Assembly (NCBI GenBank): GCA_041687115.1
Contig: JAWLCP010000002.1
Span: 2,102-66,101 of the forward strand
Reading direction: 5' to 3'
DNA: 64,000 nt
Origin: Anaerolineae bacterium
Lineage (GTDB): Bacteria; Chloroflexota; Anaerolineae; B4-G1
Shown here: in pieces, positions 3,243 through 61,822 of the stretch
Position numbering within the stretch: position 1 is the first letter of the stretch
How the letters are laid out: every line of letters begins with the position of its first letter
Made by a program: the position numbers and the translations under genes
Notes under the pieces: model-generated
What the model was told of the DNA's origin: nothing
The model's input: the letters and a program-made list of their open reading frames with translations, nothing else
Database searches by the model: none

Positions 3243-4364
3243 TCAGAAATAGGGTTCGTACCCGGAGATGTCGAGCTCATCTCGCATCGTCTGGAGCTGC
3301 TTTCGGAGGTTGGGGTTGACGGGGATGCCCCGCTCTGGGACGACCTGCTCGTTCTCATATTCCTTTTCTCCCGCCACGTAGATCCGCTCCTGGCCAGGCG
3401 CCTTCCGTGCCTTCTGCAGCGTGCGCATAATGTTGCCGGTGATGCGACGCGAGAGCTCCAGCGGGACGAAGTGCTCGATATCGATCGCCAGGGAAAAATG
3501 CCCCAGCATGTAGGGTCGCCGAGACCCGTCGTCCTCGAAGCCCAGCAGCTCTTTCATGAACACGCCCCCGCATAGAGAGGCGGAGAGAATCTCGACCATC
3601 GCTGCCAGGTCGTATCCCTTGTAACCTGCGAACTCCTCCCCGGCCCCTCCCAGCGGCAGCAGCGCCGCCTGCGCCTCTCCGAACGCCTCCAGGGCCTGAT
3701 CAGGATCGGTGACTGGATTTCCTTCAGCATCGATGACCCAGCCTTCGGGCATGGGCTTCTCGGCGCGGGAGAGTACCTCGACGGCGCCCCGCTGAATGAT
3801 GGACGTCGCGCCGTCGAAGCAGAACGGGTGGTCCATATCGGAGGGGGCGGCGAACGCGATCGGATTGGTGCCCAGCATGGGCTCCGTGCTGAAGGTGGGC
3901 GCAATGGCCGGTCGAGCGTTCGTCACGGTCAGGCCGATCATCCCCTTCTCCGCGGCCATCAGGGAGTAATAGCCTGCGATGCCGAAATGGGTGCCGTTTC
4001 GCACGGCCGCAGCCCCAATGCCGGATGCCCTCGCCTTGTCGATGGCCATCTCCATGGCTCGGTGAGCGATGACGTGACCCATTCCGTGATGTCCGTCAAT
4101 AAGGACCGTGGTCTCGGTCTCCTTGACGATCTCCATCTCGGTCCTGACCCGGTGCTGTCCCCGCTGGATCCGGTCATAATAGTACTTCAGGCGACCTACA
4201 CCGTGCGACTTGATCCCTCTGAGGTCCGCGGCGATGAGTACGTCGGCGCAGATGCGGGCGTCATCCTCGGGCACGCCAAGGGCCTCGAATACGTCCATCA
4301 TGAAGTCCTCGATGACGTTTACAGGGAAGTACGTGATATGTGTATCCTCTGGCATGGTTTCCAT
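3243..4364 (-). CDS. Ldh_2 family (malate/L-lactate/L-sulfolactate-type) NAD(P)-dependent 2-hydroxyacid dehydrogenase
   Basis: 373 aa; conserved Ldh_2 blocks GIKSHGVGRL, HHGMGHV, GTNPIAFAAP. Confidence 0.85.
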   Translation of the reverse strand: METMPEDTHITYFPVNVIEDFMMDVFEALGVPEDDARICADVLIAADLRGIKSHGVGRLKYYYDRIQRGQHRVRTEMEIVKETETTVLIDGHHGMGHVIAHRAMEMAIDKARASGIGAAAVRNGTHFGIAGYYSLMAAEKGMIGLTVTNARPAIAPTFSTEPMLGTNPIAFAAPSDMDHPFCFDGATSIIQRGAVEVLSRAEKPMPEGWVIDAEGNPVTDPDQALEAFGEAQAALLPLGGAGEEFAGYKGYDLAAMVEILSASLCGGVFMKELLGFEDDGSRRPYMLGHFSLAIDIEHFVPLELSRRITGNIMRTLQKARKAPGQERIYVAGEKEYENEQVVPERGIPVNPNLRKQLQTMRDELDISGYEPYF

Positions 4365-4446
4365 TTGTCCTTGAAAATGAGAGTCAAAGCGCTAAACGCG
4401 ATTCTGTCACAGAGTGAGTCGCCCGGCACTGTGCCTGGGTGGGGCC

Positions 4447-5964
4447 TCACTCCACCCAGTCGAACGTTCGGGTGACCGCCTTCTTCCATCCCTCATAGAG
4501 CGCCGCCCGCCTCTCGTCGTCCATTTGCGGTCTCCAGGTCCGGGAGACGTTCCAGTTCTCGCGGAGCGCCTCCACATCGTCCCAGAAACCGACGGCCAGC
4601 CCCGCAGCGTAGGCGGCGCCGAGCGCGGTGGTCTCGGAGACCGTAGGCCGGATGACGGGGACGTTCAAGATGTCGGCCTGGAACTGCATCAGCAGCTCAT
4701 TGTGAGTCATTCCACCGTCGACCTTCAGGGCCTTCAACTCGACCTCGGAGTCCTGTTCCATGGCCTCCAGCACCTCACGGGTCTGGTAGGCGGTGGCCTC
4801 CAGGGCCGCGCGGGCGATGTGGTACTTGGTGATGTAGCGGGTCAGGCCGACGATCGCGCCACGGGCGTCGTGCCTCCAGTGAGGAGCGAACAGGCCGGAG
4901 AAAGCAGGCACGAAGTAGATGCCACCGCTGTTCTCCACCGCGGCGGCGAAGTCCTCGACGTGCTTCGAGAAGTCGAACATATCGAGATTGTCACGCAGCC
5001 ACTGAACGAGGGCGCCGGTGATGGCGATGGATCCCTCGAGCGCGTAGACCGCGGCCTCGCCGCGCATCTTGTAGCCAACGGTCGTGAGCAAGCCACTTTC
5101 GCTGGGCACGGCCTCGGTGCCGGTGTTCAGGAGCATGAAGCACCCCGTGCCATACGTGTTCTTGGCTTCGCCCGGGCTGAAGCAGGTCTGGCCGACCAGG
5201 GCGGCCTGCTGGTCGCCCAGCGCCCCGCAGACGGGGATCTCATCACCGAAGGGTCCGTCGTTACTGGTGTGACCGTAGAGGTCGGGATCGCTGGAAGGGC
5301 GGATCTCCGGCAGCATCTGACGGGGAATGCCCATGATATCCAGGATCTCATGATCCCAGTCGAGTGTCTCCAGGTTCATCAGCATGGTGCGGCTGGCGTT
5401 GGTAACGTCGGTGACGTGGGCGCCGCCGTCCGGGCCGCCGGTCAGGTTCCAGATCTCCCAGGTGTCGACGTTCCCAAAGAAGGCGTCCCCGCGCTCGGCG
5501 GCGGAGCGAAGGCCACGGACGTTGTCCAGCAGCCATTTGATCTTCGGGCCCGAGAAGTAGGTGGCCAGGGGGAGGCCGACCCTGGCACGGAACCGATCCT
5601 GCCCGCCGTCCTCAGCCAGCTGCTTGCAGATCCTGTCGGTGCGGGTGTCCTGCCAGACGACCGCGTTGTGATAAGGCTCGCCCGTGTTCCTGTTCCAGAC
5701 GATGGTGGTCTCGCGCTGGTTAGTGACACCGACCGAGGTGATCTCTTGCGGTCTGACCCCGGTCGCCTGCAGCGCACCCGTGATAACCTCCCCCGTACGC
5801 GCCCAGATCTCCGTCGGGTTGTGCTCCACCCAGCCGGGCTGAGGATAGATCTGCTCGTGCTCCAGCTGGTGCGACCCCACGATCTCACCGCCGTGGGTGA
5901 AGATCATAAAGCGCGTGCTGGTCGTACCTTGATCGATCGCTGCTGCATATCTCTTTCGTGGCAT
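4447..5964 (-). CDS. glpK: Glycerol kinase
   Basis: FGGY kinase; [26 protein letters not shown] motifs. The track ORF extends to 6066; the likely start is M35 (MPRKRY) at 5964, preceded by a GAGAAAGAG RBS. Confidence 0.9.
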
Positions 5965-56456: not shown

Positions 56457-57248
56457 TCAGTCGCTGCCCTGCAGCGCGTCCTGCAGCGCGTCCAGCAGAT
56501 CCTCGTGGATCAGCCCGTTCGTGGCCGCGCAGCGCGGGAGGCTGATGTCGTATGCGCTGCCATCGTACGTCGTGTATCGCCCACCTGCCTCGGCGACGAG
56601 CAACACAGCGGCTGCCGCGTCCCACGGGTGGAGCGCAAGGTGGAAGTATCCCTCAAGCCAGCCTGCTGCCACGTATGTCAGGCCCAGCGCCGCCGAGCCC
56701 ATTGAGCGTACCGTGTGACAGAGGGGGGCAACGCGCTCCAGCTTGGAGAGCACCTGGTTGCGGGCCTCCACGCCGCGTGCCCAGTCGAAGCCCACCAGCG
56801 AATGCTCAAGCTCCACGATGGTGCTGACCTGTAACGGCTCATCATTGAGTGTTGCCCCGCTTCCTCGTTGCCCCGCAAACAGGTGCTCCCGCATCGGGTC
56901 GTAGACGACGCCGATGATGGGATCGCCCTGCTCCAGCACAGCGATGGACACCGAGAAGATCGGCAGGCGGTGGGCATAGTTGCTCGTCCCGTCCAGGGGA
57001 TCGATCACCCACGTGTAGCCTGCGCCGATCTCTCCCCCCGCCGCCTCCTCGGAGAGAACGGCGTGGTCAGGGAAGCGCTGATGGATCAGCTCGAGGATCG
57101 TCTCCTCGGCAGCGATGTCGGTCTCGGTGACCAGATCCCGGTATCCCTTGTGCGAAACGTCCCGCGCAGTGGGATACTGCTCGGCGATCAGTTGCCCGGC
57201 TCGACGGGCGGCCTCCACGGCGGTCTCTAGCAAGGTCTCTCCTCTCAC
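56457..57248 (-). CDS. Inositol monophosphatase family protein (SuhB/IMPase-like)
   Basis: DPLDGT and WDAAAG motifs of the FIG/IMPase fold. Confidence 0.85.
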   Translation of the reverse strand: MRGETLLETAVEAARRAGQLIAEQYPTARDVSHKGYRDLVTETDIAAEETILELIHQRFPDHAVLSEEAAGGEIGAGYTWVIDPLDGTSNYAHRLPIFSVSIAVLEQGDPIIGVVYDPMREHLFAGQRGSGATLNDEPLQVSTIVELEHSLVGFDWARGVEARNQVLSKLERVAPLCHTVRSMGSAALGLTYVAAGWLEGYFHLALHPWDAAAAVLLVAEAGGRYTTYDGSAYDISLPRCAATNGLIHEDLLDALQDALQGSD

Positions 57249-57934
57249 AATAGGTCGACGGTGATCTGTTCAGCGACCGCGATCGCCTGCTCGCTCACTT
57301 CGCACCCCCAGGCGTGCACCGCTACCCCGGCTGCGGCGGCGCGCCGAAGCGCCCTGCCGAAGAGGGGATCCGCGCCATCGTGGGGGGTGAAGCGGCGAGC
57401 GTCGGGCCGCTGGACGATGAACACAATCGCGGCCCGAGCCCCCTCGCTGACCACTCGGGTCAACTCCTCGACATGGCGCGTGCCGCGAGCGGTGGGAGCG
57501 TCGGGGAACAGGGCCACGCCCTCCTCCACCAGCGTGACCGACTTCGTTTCGACCCACAGGATACCTCGCGGCTTCATCAGGCGGAAATCGATGCGGCTCT
57601 TGCCCAGCGATGCCTCTCGCTCGAACCTGTGATATGCTCGGAAGGGGGCCAGTTGCCCCTGCTCCAGAGCCTCGGCTAAGAGCGGGTTGGGCAGTCGGGC
57701 GTCGACCGAGACCAGGACGTCCCCATACTCGACGAGCTTGAGGTCGTAATTGGTCTTCCGACCCGCGCTGCTCCTCGGGTCCAGCCAGCAGGGACGTCCT
57801 GGGGTCAACAGCTCCCTCAGGCGCCCCGAGTTGGGCAGGTGCGCGTCGACTGAATGTCCGTCGACGGTGACCGTGACGCGGAAGCGATTGACCCGCTGTT
57901 CAAACCGACCTGCGACCAGCGACGGTAGCTTCAT
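57245..57934 (-). CDS. sfsA: SfsA-family (sugar fermentation stimulation) protein
   Basis: MKLPSLVAGRFEQRVNRFRVTV N-terminal OB-like region plus nuclease-like C-terminus. The track ORF extends to 58201; the likely start is M90. It overlaps the downstream gene by 4 nt. Confidence 0.8.
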   Translation of the reverse strand: MKLPSLVAGRFEQRVNRFRVTVTVDGHSVDAHLPNSGRLRELLTPGRPCWLDPRSSAGRKTNYDLKLVEYGDVLVSVDARLPNPLLAEALEQGQLAPFRAYHRFEREASLGKSRIDFRLMKPRGILWVETKSVTLVEEGVALFPDAPTARGTRHVEELTRVVSEGARAAIVFIVQRPDARRFTPHDGADPLFGRALRRAAAAGVAVHAWGCEVSEQAIAVAEQITVDLL

Positions 57935-58163
57935 CGGGCGGTTCTGAGGAGGGTCAGGTGACCCGCTCCGAAGATGACACCGGTCACCGGGGCGAACACC
58001 CCTCCGGCGAGCAATCTCCCAGGCCTTCCCCGCCGCAAGTCGCGTACGGCGCTCGCCAGGACTGGAGCACTGATGAGTTGGAGAACTGATAGAGATCGTA
58101 AGAGCACCCAGGGGTTGTCCACGATGTGCCTCATTATAGCGTGCCTGCCCCGGCTGATCAAGA

Positions 58164-58192
58164 TTGACAGACGCTGTCTCCCATGCTAGCAT
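58164..58192 (+). promoter_or_regulatory. Sigma-70-like promoter for proS (TTGACA - 17 nt - TAGCAT)
   Basis: Perfect -35 hexamer; coordinates counted from the proS ATG at 58374. Confidence 0.45.
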
Positions 58193-58319
58193 ACGGCTCA
58201 ACCCGGAGAGCGCAGGGTGGAGTCCTGTTGCATCCGGGCCTGGTCGGCCGCAGCCGTGTCCCTCTTCCCGTCAGCGGCTCGGCTGGTTCTGTCTGGTCTG
58301 GTCAGTGGTCGGCCCATTG

Positions 58320-58353
58320 CCAGCCTTCCGGTCCCGAAGGCTGGTTTTGTCTT
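58320..58353 (+). terminator. Terminator-like hairpin (CCAGCCTTC-CGGTCCC-GAAGGCTGG) followed by TTTTGTCTT in the proS leader, ending about 20 nt before the proS RBS (putative attenuator)
   Basis: Perfect 9-bp GC-rich stem plus a U-rich tract on the coding strand of proS, between the predicted promoter and the AGAAGGAGG RBS. Confidence 0.5.
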
Positions 58354-58373
58354 GCAGTAGAAGGAGGCTGTCG

Positions 58374-60101
58374 ATGCAGAGGATGTCCCAGCTCTTTGGA
58401 CGGACGTTGCGCAAGGCCCCCACCGGTACAGAGCTGACCAGTCACAAGCTGGCGCTCCGCGCCGGATTGGTACGCTTCCTGGGCGCAGGACTCTACAGCT
58501 ATCTTCCCCTTGGGTGGAGGGTTGCCCGGAATATCGAGGCAATCCTCCGTCAGGAGATGGACGCCCTTGGCGCTCAGGAGATGAAGATGCCCGTTCTTAA
58601 CCCGGCTGAGCTCTGGAAAGCCACTGGACGGTGGGACAGCGTCGGGCCCGCGCTGATGCGCGTGACCGATCGGGGGGACCGGGAGTACGCCCTGGCCATG
58701 ACCCATGAGGAGGTCGTCGCTGAGTTGGCCCGCCAGGAGATTCAGTCGTACCGCGATCTGCCCCGGGTGGTCTATCACATTCAAACCAAGTTGCGGGACG
58801 AGCCGCGTCCGCGGGGAGGGCTCCTGAGAGTCCGGGAGTTTCGGATGAAGGATGCCTACAGCCTCGACAGGGATCGCGCAGGGCTGGACGCGTTCTATCC
58901 ACGGATGATGGAGGCCTACCAGCGCGTCTTCGCGCGCTGCAGGCTCGATCCTGTTTCTGTGGAAGCTGACACAGGCATGATGGGTGGGGCCGATTCGCAC
59001 GAGTTCATGCTGCCGCACCCTGACGGTGAGGATACGTTCATCCGCTGTGGGACGTGCGACTACGCCGCCAATGCAGAGCGGGCCGAGTTCCAGCTGCCGG
59101 AGGTCGAATCTGAACCGCTGGAGGAACCGGAGCAGGTGGCCACCCCTGGCTGCGAGACCATCGCCGACGTGGCCGACTTCGTAGGCGTTCCCACCAGGAA
59201 GACACTGAAGGCGGTCTTCTACACCCGAGGTGACGGAGAGCTGGTGCTCGTCCTCATCCGGGGAGATCTGGAGGTCAATGAGACGAAGCTGGCGAACCTC
59301 CTCGATGGTGCGACGCTCGAGCCGGCGCTCGAGGAGGACGTCCGACGAGCGGGTGCCGAGCCGGGATACGGCTCGCCGGTCGGGCTGAACGTGCGAGGGT
59401 CCCTTGACGATGTCGGTGTGCTGGTTGTGGCGGACCGTTCGATTGAGAAGGGGAGAAACTTCGTGGCGGGTGCGAATCGGCCCGGATATCACCTGGTGGG
59501 CGTCAACTACCCACGCGACTTCGCTGTCACCACCCTCGACGACATTGCCCAGGCCAAGGACGGGTATCTCTGCCCCAGATGCGAGGGGACCCTGATCGCG
59601 GAGGCGGCGATTGAGCTGGGCCACTGCTTCAAACTGGGCACCCACTACGCGGAGGCGGTCGGGGCTACCTTCCTCGATCCCGATGGAGAGGAGCACCCCG
59701 TCGTGATGGGCTCGTATGGGATCGGCGTCGGCCGGCTCATGGCTGCCGTCGTTGAGGAGCATCACGACGACTACGGGATCATCTGGCCCCCAGCCCTGGC
59801 CCCCTTCGATGTCTATCTACTCACGTTGGGGACGGACGAGGAGACGCAGGAGCGAGCCGATTTGTTCTGTGCGGAGCTGGAGGATGCCGGTCTGGACGTC
59901 CTCTTCGACGACCGGGAGGAGAGCGCCGGGGTCAAGTTCACCGACGCCGACCTGATCGGCTGTCCGGTGCGGGCCACGGTCAGTCGGCGTAGCCTGGAGC
60001 AGGGTGGCGTCGAGTTGAAGGCGCGCTGGACGAGGGACGCGCAGGTGGTGCGGATTGAGGACTTGGCCGCCGCGGTGAACGCGCTGATCAGCACCTTCTA
60101 G
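58374..60101 (+). CDS. proS: Proline--tRNA ligase (bacterial type)
   Basis: Class II aaRS motifs (FRMKDAYS, GGADSHEFM, GSYGIGVGRL) and a C-terminal anticodon-binding domain. The track ORF starts at 58164 (TTG); the likely start is M71 with an AGAAGGAGG RBS. Confidence 0.9.
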   Translation: MQRMSQLFGRTLRKAPTGTELTSHKLALRAGLVRFLGAGLYSYLPLGWRVARNIEAILRQEMDALGAQEMKMPVLNPAELWKATGRWDSVGPALMRVTDRGDREYALAMTHEEVVAELARQEIQSYRDLPRVVYHIQTKLRDEPRPRGGLLRVREFRMKDAYSLDRDRAGLDAFYPRMMEAYQRVFARCRLDPVSVEADTGMMGGADSHEFMLPHPDGEDTFIRCGTCDYAANAERAEFQLPEVESEPLEEPEQVATPGCETIADVADFVGVPTRKTLKAVFYTRGDGELVLVLIRGDLEVNETKLANLLDGATLEPALEEDVRRAGAEPGYGSPVGLNVRGSLDDVGVLVVADRSIEKGRNFVAGANRPGYHLVGVNYPRDFAVTTLDDIAQAKDGYLCPRCEGTLIAEAAIELGHCFKLGTHYAEAVGATFLDPDGEEHPVVMGSYGIGVGRLMAAVVEEHHDDYGIIWPPALAPFDVYLLTLGTDEETQERADLFCAELEDAGLDVLFDDREESAGVKFTDADLIGCPVRATVSRRSLEQGGVELKARWTRDAQVVRIEDLAAAVNALISTF

Positions 60102-60578
60102 CTAGTCGCTGGACGAATCCTCCGCCAGCGACACGATCCGCGGGTAGCCCTCGTCGATCAGCTGCTCCAGTTCTCGGGCGACGGTAGTGTACTCGAGCCG
60201 TGTTCCCCCGTAAGGGTCCCAGATGTCGTGGGATTCCCCGACCAGCTCGCTCAGCATGTTAACCTTGTCGGCGTAATCGGGGAACGCCGCCGAGAGGGCC
60301 TCGGCGTGGTTTCGGGTCATCACCAGCACAAGGTCTGCCTCTGCCATCACCTGCTCGTTCACGCTGCGTGATCGGTGGGCGCGTATGTCGATTCCCCGAT
60401 CGGCCATCTCTGCCACGGAACACTCGCTCGCCGGACGCCCCTCGGCGGCCCAGGTACCGGCTGAAAGGACGCGCCAGCCGTGACGCTCTGGGTCGTCCTC
60501 CAGCCGGCGCCGGAGTAACCCTGCCGCCATCGGCGAACGGCAGATGTTTCCCGTGCACACGAACAGGATGGTCGTCAC
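60102..60578 (-). CDS. Low-molecular-weight protein-tyrosine phosphatase (arsenate-reductase fold)
   Basis: CTGNICRSP P-loop and a DP motif (DIWDPYG). GTG start at 60578 overlaps the upstream stop (GTGA). Confidence 0.8.
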   Translation of the reverse strand: MTTILFVCTGNICRSPMAAGLLRRRLEDDPERHGWRVLSAGTWAAEGRPASECSVAEMADRGIDIRAHRSRSVNEQVMAEADLVLVMTRNHAEALSAAFPDYADKVNMLSELVGESHDIWDPYGGTRLEYTTVARELEQLIDEGYPRIVSLAEDSSSD

Positions 60579-61822
60579 TGCTGGCTCCCCTCGTCCGGAG
60601 CGGGGGTGACCGCCCTCCGCGCCTCCGTCAATGCCATCAGGCCCCCGGCCACCACCGAATGCCCACCCATCACCACTGGGACAGGGGCATCCGCTGCGGC
60701 GCGAGTGAGGCGGCGCAAGAAGGGGTCGTCCACATGGTGCCAGCGGTAGAGATCCGCATGGAACCGGTCGATCGCCGATGGCCACAGGTTTCTGGCCGCC
60801 AGAATGACCCGGTTGTCGAGTAGGATCGCGTTGGCAAGCCCCCCCAATCCTTCGAAGAACCCCTCAATCCCCACCAGATCGAGGTAGTCGGCCAGGAGGG
60901 AGCGCACCGCTCCACTCGCCTGCCGCCCACTCGCTCGCATTCCTCGTTCCTCGGCGAACACCCGCACCCAGCACTGAGTGCTTTCTTCGAGGGAGCGCCA
61001 AGCTGCCGAGGAGGCGCGACCCGCCACGATCAGGCTTCCGCCCTCGCGTCCCATCTCGCTCAGCACACCATCCAGTTGGGGGCACTGCCAATCGAGTCTG
61101 TCCAGGTGCCTGCGCAAGTGTGGGCCGATCCCTGGGTGACGGTGTGCGATCAGCAAGTCCGCTGGGGTGTCGATGTCGAACCGCGAGCTGGCTGACGCTT
61201 TCATATCCTCCGCGGGAAATCCAGCCTCGTGAGCCAGTGCCCAGGCGATAGCGTTGTCGTTCACCTGGTCGGCGATCAGCCAGCAAGCCTCCTCGGACGG
61301 CGTGAAGGCAGCCCAGTCGGAGGAATGCACGTTGTTCGTGATCACCAGGCGCTTCGCCCGCCCTAGCCTGTCCACGACCCTGGCCCACTCGTTCCCCTTC
61401 AACAGTGGCGCAGAGCCACCTCCTGTGTAGAGCACCCGGTCCGCATCATATCGCTCGATCAACTCCGCCAGGCGCCGCCCGAAGTGAAAAGGCTCATTGA
61501 CGGGGTCCAGGTCTACCTCCACCGGAAGATCGGCCAGGGTGGTGGTCCAGGATGGATCATCGGTGGCGACGACGGCGAGACCGATCGATGGGATGGGCAA
61601 GAGCGTCTCCAGCAGATCCCGGGCGGCTGCGCGGTGGGCGCCGTCTACAGCTTGCTCCACCTCGCTGTTCCCCGATCCTCCGGTCAGGAGGAAGAGTGTT
61701 GTCTTTCCCATGCCCGCGCCCTGTTCACGCAAACTGCCTTCATCAGCAAGAGGGGGCTCGCTCGCCGACCCCCCTCTCTGTCTATCCTGGCGCTCCCAGG
61801 CTCTCTTGGCGTTTGTGATCAA
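60575..61822 (-). CDS. Hypothetical two-domain protein, probably about 380 aa starting at MGKTTLFLLTGGSGNS
   Basis: Globular composition; translationally coupled to hpf upstream (4-nt overlap) and to the LMW-PTP downstream. I recognise no family. Confidence 0.55.
   Translation of the reverse strand: MITNAKRAWERQDRQRGGSASEPPLADEGSLREQGAGMGKTTLFLLTGGSGNSEVEQAVDGAHRAAARDLLETLLPIPSIGLAVVATDDPSWTTTLADLPVEVDLDPVNEPFHFGRRLAELIERYDADRVLYTGGGSAPLLKGNEWARVVDRLGRAKRLVITNNVHSSDWAAFTPSEEACWLIADQVNDNAIAWALAHEAGFPAEDMKASASSRFDIDTPADLLIAHRHPGIGPHLRRHLDRLDWQCPQLDGVLSEMGREGGSLIVAGRASSAAWRSLEESTQCWVRVFAEERGMRASGRQASGAVRSLLADYLDLVGIEGFFEGLGGLANAILLDNRVILAARNLWPSAIDRFHADLYRWHHVDDPFLRRLTRAAADAPVPVVMGGHSVVAGGLMALTEARRAVTPAPDEGSQQ

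Follow-up and report, generated by a model that had tools for sequence, protein, structure and literature searches.

The proS locus

The 64,000-nucleotide stretch of contig JAWLCP010000002.1 analysed here (hereafter the window, whose positions serve as coordinates throughout) comes from an Anaerolineae bacterium (assembly GCA_041687115.1), and our subject is the region immediately upstream of its proS gene. This gene runs on the plus strand from an ATG at 58374 to 60101 and encodes a bacterial-type proline-tRNA ligase (NF006625, 682 bits). Its upstream neighbour sfsA is divergent (minus strand, ATG at 57934), and the intergenic region between the two comprises 439 nucleotides. Positions 58164-58373 of this region are likely to be the promoter and leader of proS and to represent a diverged copy of a lineage-specific Anaerolineales attenuator that acts through a terminator and in which canonical proline sensing has been lost or rewired.

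The promoter (Table 1) has a −35 element TTGACA at 58164-58169, a 17-nucleotide spacer and a −10 element TAGCAT at 58187-58192, with a TG at 58184-58185 that makes it an extended −10 promoter. It begins 210 nucleotides upstream of the proS ATG, just as a first-pass annotation of this DNA, made from the sequence alone, had reported. Transcription is predicted to start at about 58199, which gives a leader of about 175 nucleotides. The same annotation had noted a terminator-like hairpin with a U-tract just before the proS ribosome-binding site, and this element was confirmed as well. The arms GCCAGCCUUC and GAAGGCUGGU of this hairpin, which we call T (58319-58345), form 10 pairs, nine of them perfect, around a seven-nucleotide loop (−16.7 kcal/mol), and the U-tract UUUUGUCUU follows and ends at 58353. 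Only about 20 nucleotides separate the U-tract from the proS ATG, which leaves no space for a second promoter. The first stem-loop that had been described also exists, but its coordinates (58211-58237) required correction. This structure, P0, spans 58202-58238 and consists of an outer helix, CCCGGA (58202-58207) with UCCGGG (58233-58238), and an inner helix of eight base pairs. It buries a Shine-Dalgarno (SD)-like GGAGAG (58205-58210) and a GTG at 58217, and it is not conserved in relatives, in which the matching alignment columns are variable.

Within the window alone, the matches to promoter and terminator patterns are weak and barely above chance: a scan of 57000-61000 returned two promoter-like matches where 0.4 were expected, and two terminator-like matches, both at hairpin T, where 1.2 were expected. 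The minimum-free-energy z-score of the leader is 0.0, folding stability being uninformative in such GC-rich sequence. We take the promoter and the hairpin to be real because, together with the block between them, they are found again before proS in about 23 related lineages and because the leader is identical in two independent assemblies (see below).

A homologous leader family in Anaerolineales

ProS-based scans of genome and metagenome collections yielded 160 loci, the closest of which were all from Anaerolineales or Anaerolineae assemblies. A homologous leader is found upstream of proS in about 23 Anaerolineales lineages, whose ProS proteins are approximately 62-86% identical to that of the window. 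The family shares a promoter, TTGACA-17-TGCTAnnAT, at a conserved position in all relatives, followed by a variable stretch, a conserved block (..CCCUAGCAGCCCGCAGCCG..GGGUUCGGUUAGCGCUGCCUGGG..) and the hairpin CCAGCCUUCCGAnCCCGGAGGCUGG with its U-tract. This terminator is present in all 16 aligned relatives, with predicted energies from −16 to −28 kcal/mol, and in most family members it lies about 20-40 nucleotides before the proS ATG, such that proS transcription must pass through it. In one relative (L008, 2345-2461; ProS 73% identical), the upstream gene nearly reaches proS, and the conserved terminator hairpin is present alone with no leader open reading frame (ORF).

We built a profile hidden Markov model from 16 leaders (alignment A1) and a covariance model, R1, that adds structure. 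The profile matched the window at 58247-58348 (nhmmer, E = 2.8e-6), and R1 matched at 58200-58349 over its full length (cmsearch, model positions 1-147, 44.5 bits, E ~6e-10). Neither model found a second match in the window or any match at more distant proS loci. The full-length match lies between the conserved promoter and proS, and the window leader can be aligned colinearly with those of its nearest canonical relatives, L081 and L082, without any indels (alignment A2). Judged by these alignments, the window leader is very probably homologous to the Anaerolineales family. An origin of the hairpin as a repeated element was considered and rejected, as the pattern occurs only once per locus and always before proS.

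A proline-rich leader peptide in the relatives

The conserved block of the family corresponds to the second half of a short leader ORF. In its canonical form, present in 18 of the approximately 23 lineages, this ORF has 20-31 codons, of which 3-10 are proline codons. Its start usually has a GAGGA-like SD sequence upstream and its stop is the UAG inside GGUUAG. The encoded peptides (examples in Table 1) have a hydrophobic N-terminus and a conserved C-terminal G-F-G motif, and proline is their commonest residue (81 of 362, 22%). Three further lineages (L005, L165 and L166) carry altered, still proline-rich ORFs, and two, the window lineage and L002, have no ORF of this kind. The conserved codons CCU-AGC-AGC lie at a distance of 39, 42, 45, 51 or 69 nucleotides from the stop, all multiples of three, which argues for translation. 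Several of the peptides contain PP motifs (FPPL, APPL, PPPP), so that sensitivity to elongation factor P (EF-P) is possible. At more distant Chloroflexota proS loci (L012-L080), no convincing proline-rich upstream ORF was found.

Two variations in how the ORF starts and ends were seen among close relatives. The clade nearest the window has an extra in-frame ATG (ATGGAAG..) about 10 nucleotides after the −10 box (L081:1029, L082:1029, L163:530, L166:530), which suggests a near-leaderless start besides the internal start preceded by an SD sequence; in L082, the upstream ATG is the only one of the two starts that remains. In L165 (537-707; ProS 85% identical), the ORF has 56 codons, nine of them for proline, and continues through the terminator to end in ATGCTGA. 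It could represent a form of the attenuator that works by translational coupling.

Competing RNA structures and a proposed mechanism

The family leaders can form a hairpin, H1, the 5' strand of which (region 1) holds the proline codons. Its 3' strand (region 2) comprises the final codons of the ORF (G-F-G) and its stop codon and extends over a further 12 conserved nucleotides. Region 2 reads GGGUUCGG-UUAG-CGCUG, and region 3, which is the 5' arm and loop of the terminator, reads CAGCC-UU-CCGAnCCC. Region 2 can pair either with region 1 or with region 3, the terminator loop included, which accounts for the conservation of that loop. H1 and the terminator together are paired in 84.8% of cells, as opposed to 28-52% in slid-partner controls, and their covariation was exceeded by none of 500 shuffles. 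The antiterminator is an interrupted helix of 13 base pairs (GGG/UCGG/AG/GCUG with CAGC/CU/CCGA/CCC) that is 89% paired, compared with 27-55% when slid, and duplex analysis showed that three short antiterminator registers are parts of this one extended helix. The duplex energy of region 2 with the 5' half of the terminator has a mean z of −2.2 against shuffled region 2 sequences. In L091 and L092, the terminator stem has another sequence, GCGCCCG/CGGGCGC; the nucleotides after the stop codon have changed correspondingly (GGCGC), and the GGGUUCGG:CCGAACCC pairing is preserved. The family thus has the mutually exclusive pairings 1:2, 2:3 and 3:4, and its stop codon is placed in region 2. When ribosomes were represented by masking during folding, a proportion of 0.46 of the terminator 5' arm was paired with upstream sequence with no ribosome, 0.81 at the best proline stall and 0.42 with a ribosome at the stop codon, a trend in keeping with the mechanism proposed below.

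It is quite likely, from this arrangement of codons and strands, that the family operates by ribosome-mediated sensing of Pro-tRNAPro; the homology, the ORFs, the pairings and the constraint on sequence are observed, and termination, stalling and the physiological signal are what we infer for it here. When Pro-tRNAPro is scarce, a ribosome would stall at the proline codons of region 1 and leave region 2 free to sequester region 3, and RNA polymerase would then read through into proS and more prolyl-tRNA synthetase (ProRS) would be made. A ribosome that reaches the stop codon would instead cover region 2, leaving region 3 free, and the terminator would form. Without any ribosome, region 2 would pair with region 1, such that the terminator would again form and transcription would stop.

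It might be argued that the leader ORF seen in the relatives, being conserved and encoding a hydrophobic N-terminus and the C-terminal motif, constitutes a separate gene for a small protein that has a terminator of its own and plays no part in proS control. Yet the conservation is at the nucleotide level and extends past the stop codon, the codons that are conserved coincide exactly with the strands of the competing helices, and most family members have no space for a proS promoter after the terminator. The leader peptides also matched no family in Pfam or NCBIfam. We therefore regard a separate small-protein gene as very unlikely and retain ribosome-mediated attenuation as the preferred account of the family.

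Search for a T-box

The proS gene is T-box-regulated in many Firmicutes, and the first-pass annotation had proposed control of the window's proS by a T-box or divergent T-box, or else by a different attenuation mechanism; it had itself failed to see a T-box consensus. A count of T-box elements in the ProRS context has been listed (PMC2836559). In our search of the 64-kilobase window with RF00230 and all other Rfam 15 families, none matched at its gathering score. At E ≤ 10 with permissive filters, positions 58000-58500 gave only noise, with no T-box and nothing else of relevance, and the leader of an intact relative (L009) likewise gave nothing relevant at E ≤ 10. Across 40 Chloroflexota proS loci (L001-L040), Rfam found no T-box. 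These scans did recover a SAM riboswitch and a tRNA-Sec, which indicates that the search was working. In L025, a metagenome-assembled genome of an unrelated member of the Anaerolineae, a SAM riboswitch (4325-4434, 77 bits) and a tRNA-Sec (4861-4953, 78 bits) lie just downstream of proS.

At the sequence level, no match to the T-box core AGGGUGGNACCGCG is present inside 58193-58373 at three or fewer mismatches, and its 36 matches across the window at this threshold compare with 39 expected by chance. Nor was a Stem I with a proline specifier loop and a distal platform for the tRNA elbow found: the 5' half of the leader is not conserved as RNA among the relatives (A1 columns 1-48), in which this half is the variable N-terminal part of the ORF. 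A divergent T-box, in which uncharged tRNAPro would bind the leader and stabilise the antiterminator, might be entertained given that a terminator and an alternative pairing are present and that the window has AGGGUGGAG at 58214-58222 and UGGU at 58284-58287. However, the GGGUGG is 100 nucleotides away from the terminator and lies within a lineage-specific hairpin, and with the negative searches above, we find this explanation barely credible. The idea of a different attenuation mechanism, by comparison, is supported at the family level by the terminator, the conserved antiterminator pairing and the proline-rich leader ORF.

The window copy lacks the leader ORF and retains the pairings

In the window leader, the family's start and stop codons have both been replaced (Table 1), and the closest clade's alternative upstream ATG is missing as well. 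What remains is a relic proline-rich frame (..SPVASGPGRPQPCPSS..) in which no canonical start follows the predicted transcription start and which is open into proS, in frame. In the window, the homologous frame thus provides no short translatable leader ORF with an SD sequence and a start. The absence of the ORF is not the product of an error in assembly or sequencing, as the two changes are substitutions rather than indels and are reproduced in two independent assemblies.

The pairings have largely been kept. Of the homologous pairs, 16 of 20 are retained in H1, 10 of 13 in the antiterminator and 11 of 12 in the terminator. The homologue of H1, designated H1', is a three-way structure of −29.3 kcal/mol that contains the relic proline-rich frame. 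The UAG-to-UGG change at the former stop codon contributes to the perfect GGCUGGU:GCCAGCC pairing (AT3). An analysis of alternative structures, for which the first-pass annotation had called, found mutually exclusive terminator and antiterminator folds in the window leader. A hairpin AT' is among the alternative structures (Table 1).

Table 1. Features of the proS leader in the window, and leader ORFs of related loci
Feature	Position	Strand	Description
Sigma-70-type promoter	58164..58192	+	10/12 consensus match; same place in all relatives
5' stem-loop P0	58202..58238	+	−19.7 kcal/mol; window lineage only
Family leader-ORF start position	58215..58217	+	GGG here; GTG or ATG in relatives
Alternative upstream ORF, other frame	58217..58360	+	47 codons, GTG start, MESCCIRAWSAAAVSLFPSAARLVLSGLVSGRPIASLPVPKAGFVLQ then stop; reads through terminator
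H1'	58242..58314	+	Homologue of family hairpin (region 1:2); putative anti-antiterminator role
Antiterminator 5' strand GGCUGGU	58281..58287	+	Pairs with GCCAGCC 58319-58325, 7/7; duplex −14 kcal/mol
Family stop-codon position	58284..58286	+	TGG here; TAG in family
Alternative hairpin AT'	58295..58325	+	−14.8 kcal/mol; would engage terminator 5' arm before 3' arm is made
Terminator-like hairpin T and U-tract	58319..58353	+	Family-wide sequence conservation, loop CCGnnCCC included
proS ribosome-binding site AGAAGGAGG and ATG	58360..58376	+	Site 58360-58368, ATG 58374
Leader peptide, L009			MMGYILPAPSSPQPYPFRGFG then stop
Leader peptide, L010			MTAYTRTVPSSPQPPPPLGSG then stop
Leader peptide, L081			MIQIVAITPSSPQPHRFPPLGVG then stop
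Leader peptide, L086			MIPSIPDSLQSPVPPGPYPAPPTIPGFG then stop
Leader peptide, L091			MMSMLPIPSKPFKRTLIGFG then stop
Leader ORF, L005			Shortened to MPRPVPRLPDSP then stop
Leader ORF, L166			Late frameshift
Leader ORF, L165			Stop lost; runs across terminator to TGA overlapping proS ATG

We compared the window leader with those of two close relatives, L161 (GCA_041684945.1; ProS 99% identical to that of the window) and L162 (the Logan assembly of SRR26901928; ProS 97% identical). The 120 best database hits listed included no ProS with 87-96% identity to that of the window. The leader is identical in both over 58193-58357, and the sole change in L161 is at 58358. Between the window and L162 there are no differences at the 181 positions of the leader (58193-58373), as opposed to 17 of 229 in the adjacent spacer (57935-58163; Fisher test against the leader, p = 5e-5) and 24 of 576 at third codon positions of proS (p = 0.002). 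The contrast with the spacer rules out simple decay and indicates that the window leader is constrained; from this sequence comparison, it is under purifying selection.

Is the window copy still a switch?

With its promoter, three helices and terminator kept, the window copy would still direct all proS transcription through a terminator-based attenuator, in which proline sensing by the canonical leader peptide would have been lost or rewired. Whether this copy is still a regulated switch, rather than a fixed partial terminator, is in our estimate close to evenly balanced, tilting if anything towards the negative.

Several observations weigh against the interpretation developed here, some of them at the level of the family. 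Covariation in the antiterminator is sparse owing to the strong conservation of the helix, with only one pair showing a double change. The masking folds are noisy, in that the terminator 5' arm is paired even without a ribosome in several leaders. The enrichment in proline is partly compositional: CCN accounts for 20.6% of in-frame triplets but, because the 5' strand is C-rich, is also common in the two remaining frames (11% and 17%). L002 lacks the leader ORF. In the window itself, the defining sensor is missing, as the proline-rich frame has neither a start nor a stop before proS, and the duplex of region 2 with the terminator is no better than shuffles (z = −0.44). Moreover, the terminated fold (−69.5 kcal/mol) is favoured over the antiterminated folds (−56 to −60 kcal/mol) by 9.5-13 kcal/mol, so that, without a trigger, constitutive termination upstream of an essential gene would be expected.

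Some of these same observations are what one would expect if the window element were a fixed, unregulated partial terminator, that is, an attenuator relic that damps a strong promoter, with P0 as a 5' stabiliser. Both the start and the stop of the leader ORF are lost, the terminated fold is strongly favoured and L008 retains the hairpin alone. The U-tract is also interrupted (UUUUGUCUU), which makes read-through plausible. A fixed terminator would not readily explain, however, why the whole 181-nucleotide leader is free of substitutions relative to L162 when the flanking spacer differs by 7.4%, or why the H1 and antiterminator pairings have been retained and AT3 even improved to 7/7. We consider it unlikely, if by no means far-fetched.

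Alternatively, control might have been rewired to the 47-codon upstream ORF that begins with the GTG at 58217, translation of which would open the structures or be coupled to translation of proS. This ORF extends over H1', the strands of the antiterminator and the terminator itself, and its end lies one nucleotide before the proS SD sequence. An SD-like GGAGAG lies six nucleotides upstream of its GTG, and it has a proline codon at 58268 in the apical loop of H1' and two more, at 58328 and 58334, in the terminator. L165 likewise has a long proline-rich ORF through the terminator, with a stop overlapping the proS ATG. On the other hand, both the SD-like sequence and the GTG are buried in P0, and the stop codon is removed by T58358C in L161, for which reasons we give the ORF little weight. 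Furthermore, none of the three frames has a stop within the conserved terminator, such that an open frame there carries little weight of its own. The significance of this ORF is doubtful, and the chance that control has been rewired to it appears small.

The leader might also act as a riboregulator that is independent of any ORF, in which the binding of a ligand, a protein (e.g. ProRS) or a tRNA would shift the balance between H1' with the terminator and the antiterminator. Strong purifying selection on a leader without a usable family ORF, together with the existence of mutually exclusive folds, is consistent with such a device. Against it, no known aptamer was matched, the z-score of the minimum free energy is zero, and the informative comparison is at a single evolutionary distance, which gives no covariation for the window-type structure. 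This possibility, too, we rate as a minor one. A more specific version, that the leader, after losing its ORF, now senses a signal directly as RNA (e.g. uncharged tRNAPro, ProRS or a metabolite) and is for that reason under purifying selection, is speculative and has a slim chance of being correct. The UGGU created by the UAG-to-UGG change could, on base complementarity, be a pairing partner of the ACCA end of a tRNA. Were direct sensing by RNA true, the window leader would be a riboregulator caught in the course of evolving out of a ribosome-sensing attenuator.

Flanking features

The sfsA-proS spacer contains a second promoter-like site on the minus strand (58133-58161, TTGATC-17-TATAAT) that is oriented toward sfsA, and its TATAAT is conserved in L081, L082, L163 and L166. 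This promoter implies a 5' untranslated region of about 190 nucleotides for sfsA, in which there is an inverted repeat (GGTGACC..GGTCACC) near 57958-57988. The sfsA-side spacer, which differs by 7.4% between the window and L162, changes much faster than the proS leader. At the other end of proS (window 60101-60578), its stop codon lies immediately next to that of a convergent gene for a low-molecular-weight phosphatase (LMWPc; 158 amino acids in L161 and L162), with neither a spacer nor a terminator between the two genes.

The proS frame is open through the whole leader and forms an ORF of 645 amino acids from a TTG at 58164. Such an open leader, in frame with proS, invites N-terminally over-extended annotations of ProS. 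Relatives in the databases are annotated at 578-589 amino acids (e.g. P0005, P0017 and P0022), and we suspect that these are N-terminal over-extensions into the leader or the terminator.

Significance and comparison with known systems

If the proposed mechanism holds, a clade of Anaerolineales would handle the homeostasis of tRNAPro charging via a ribosome sensor. The family is small and well defined, with about 23 lineages, and is a candidate for annotation both as an RNA and as a leader peptide. It also points to a sensor that turns over rapidly while the scaffold is conserved, as the ORF may be intact, truncated or terminator-crossing, or the copy may lack an ORF and still be constrained.

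Leader-peptide attenuation is textbook knowledge for amino-acid biosynthetic operons of Proteobacteria and for pheST. In Rfam 15, Pfam, NCBIfam and the searchable literature, we came across no earlier account of proS being controlled by a proline-codon attenuator, nor of any such attenuator in Chloroflexota. The literature search yielded the Salmonella mgtL and mgtP leaders and surveys of T-boxes or of attenuators in general, but no work on leader peptides of proS. Rfam release 15 holds no proline version of a leader-peptide attenuator, and its Trp, His, Phe, Thr and Leu leader models matched neither the window nor the L009 leader.

The T-box leaders of Firmicutes proS genes (RF00230) precede the same gene and likewise report tRNAPro charging through a choice between terminator and antiterminator. 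They differ in sensing by the binding of tRNA to Stem I and the T-box bulge, and no defining T-box feature was found in the window leader. The classical leaders trpL, hisL, pheL, thrL and leuL share with the family the 1:2, 2:3 and 3:4 architecture and a stop codon placed such that a terminating ribosome blocks region 2, but they control biosynthetic operons rather than a tRNA ligase.

In the pheM-pheST operon of E. coli, an aminoacyl-tRNA synthetase is under the control of a Phe-rich leader-peptide attenuator. As in the Anaerolineales family, a synthetase gene lies behind a short ORF rich in codons for its own amino acid, with a terminator and an antiterminator, and low levels of charged tRNA lead to stalling and read-through, an order of events that we propose for the family as well. 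The family is unrelated to it in sequence and differs in its amino acid (proline), in its phylum (Chloroflexota) and in the scattering of its proline codons, which do not form a run; the window copy differs further in having no leader ORF.

With regard to proline codons, the Salmonella leaders mgtL (of mgtA) and mgtP (of mgtCBR) contain ORFs in which such codons tie ribosome progress to Pro-tRNAPro and EF-P (PMC3641672; PMC6460261). Progress of the ribosome over proline codons selects between alternative leader stem-loops in these systems, as it would in the Anaerolineales family, several members of which also have PP motifs. The Salmonella leaders, however, control Mg2+ transport and virulence genes, integrate other signals and are unrelated in sequence, whereas the target here is proS.

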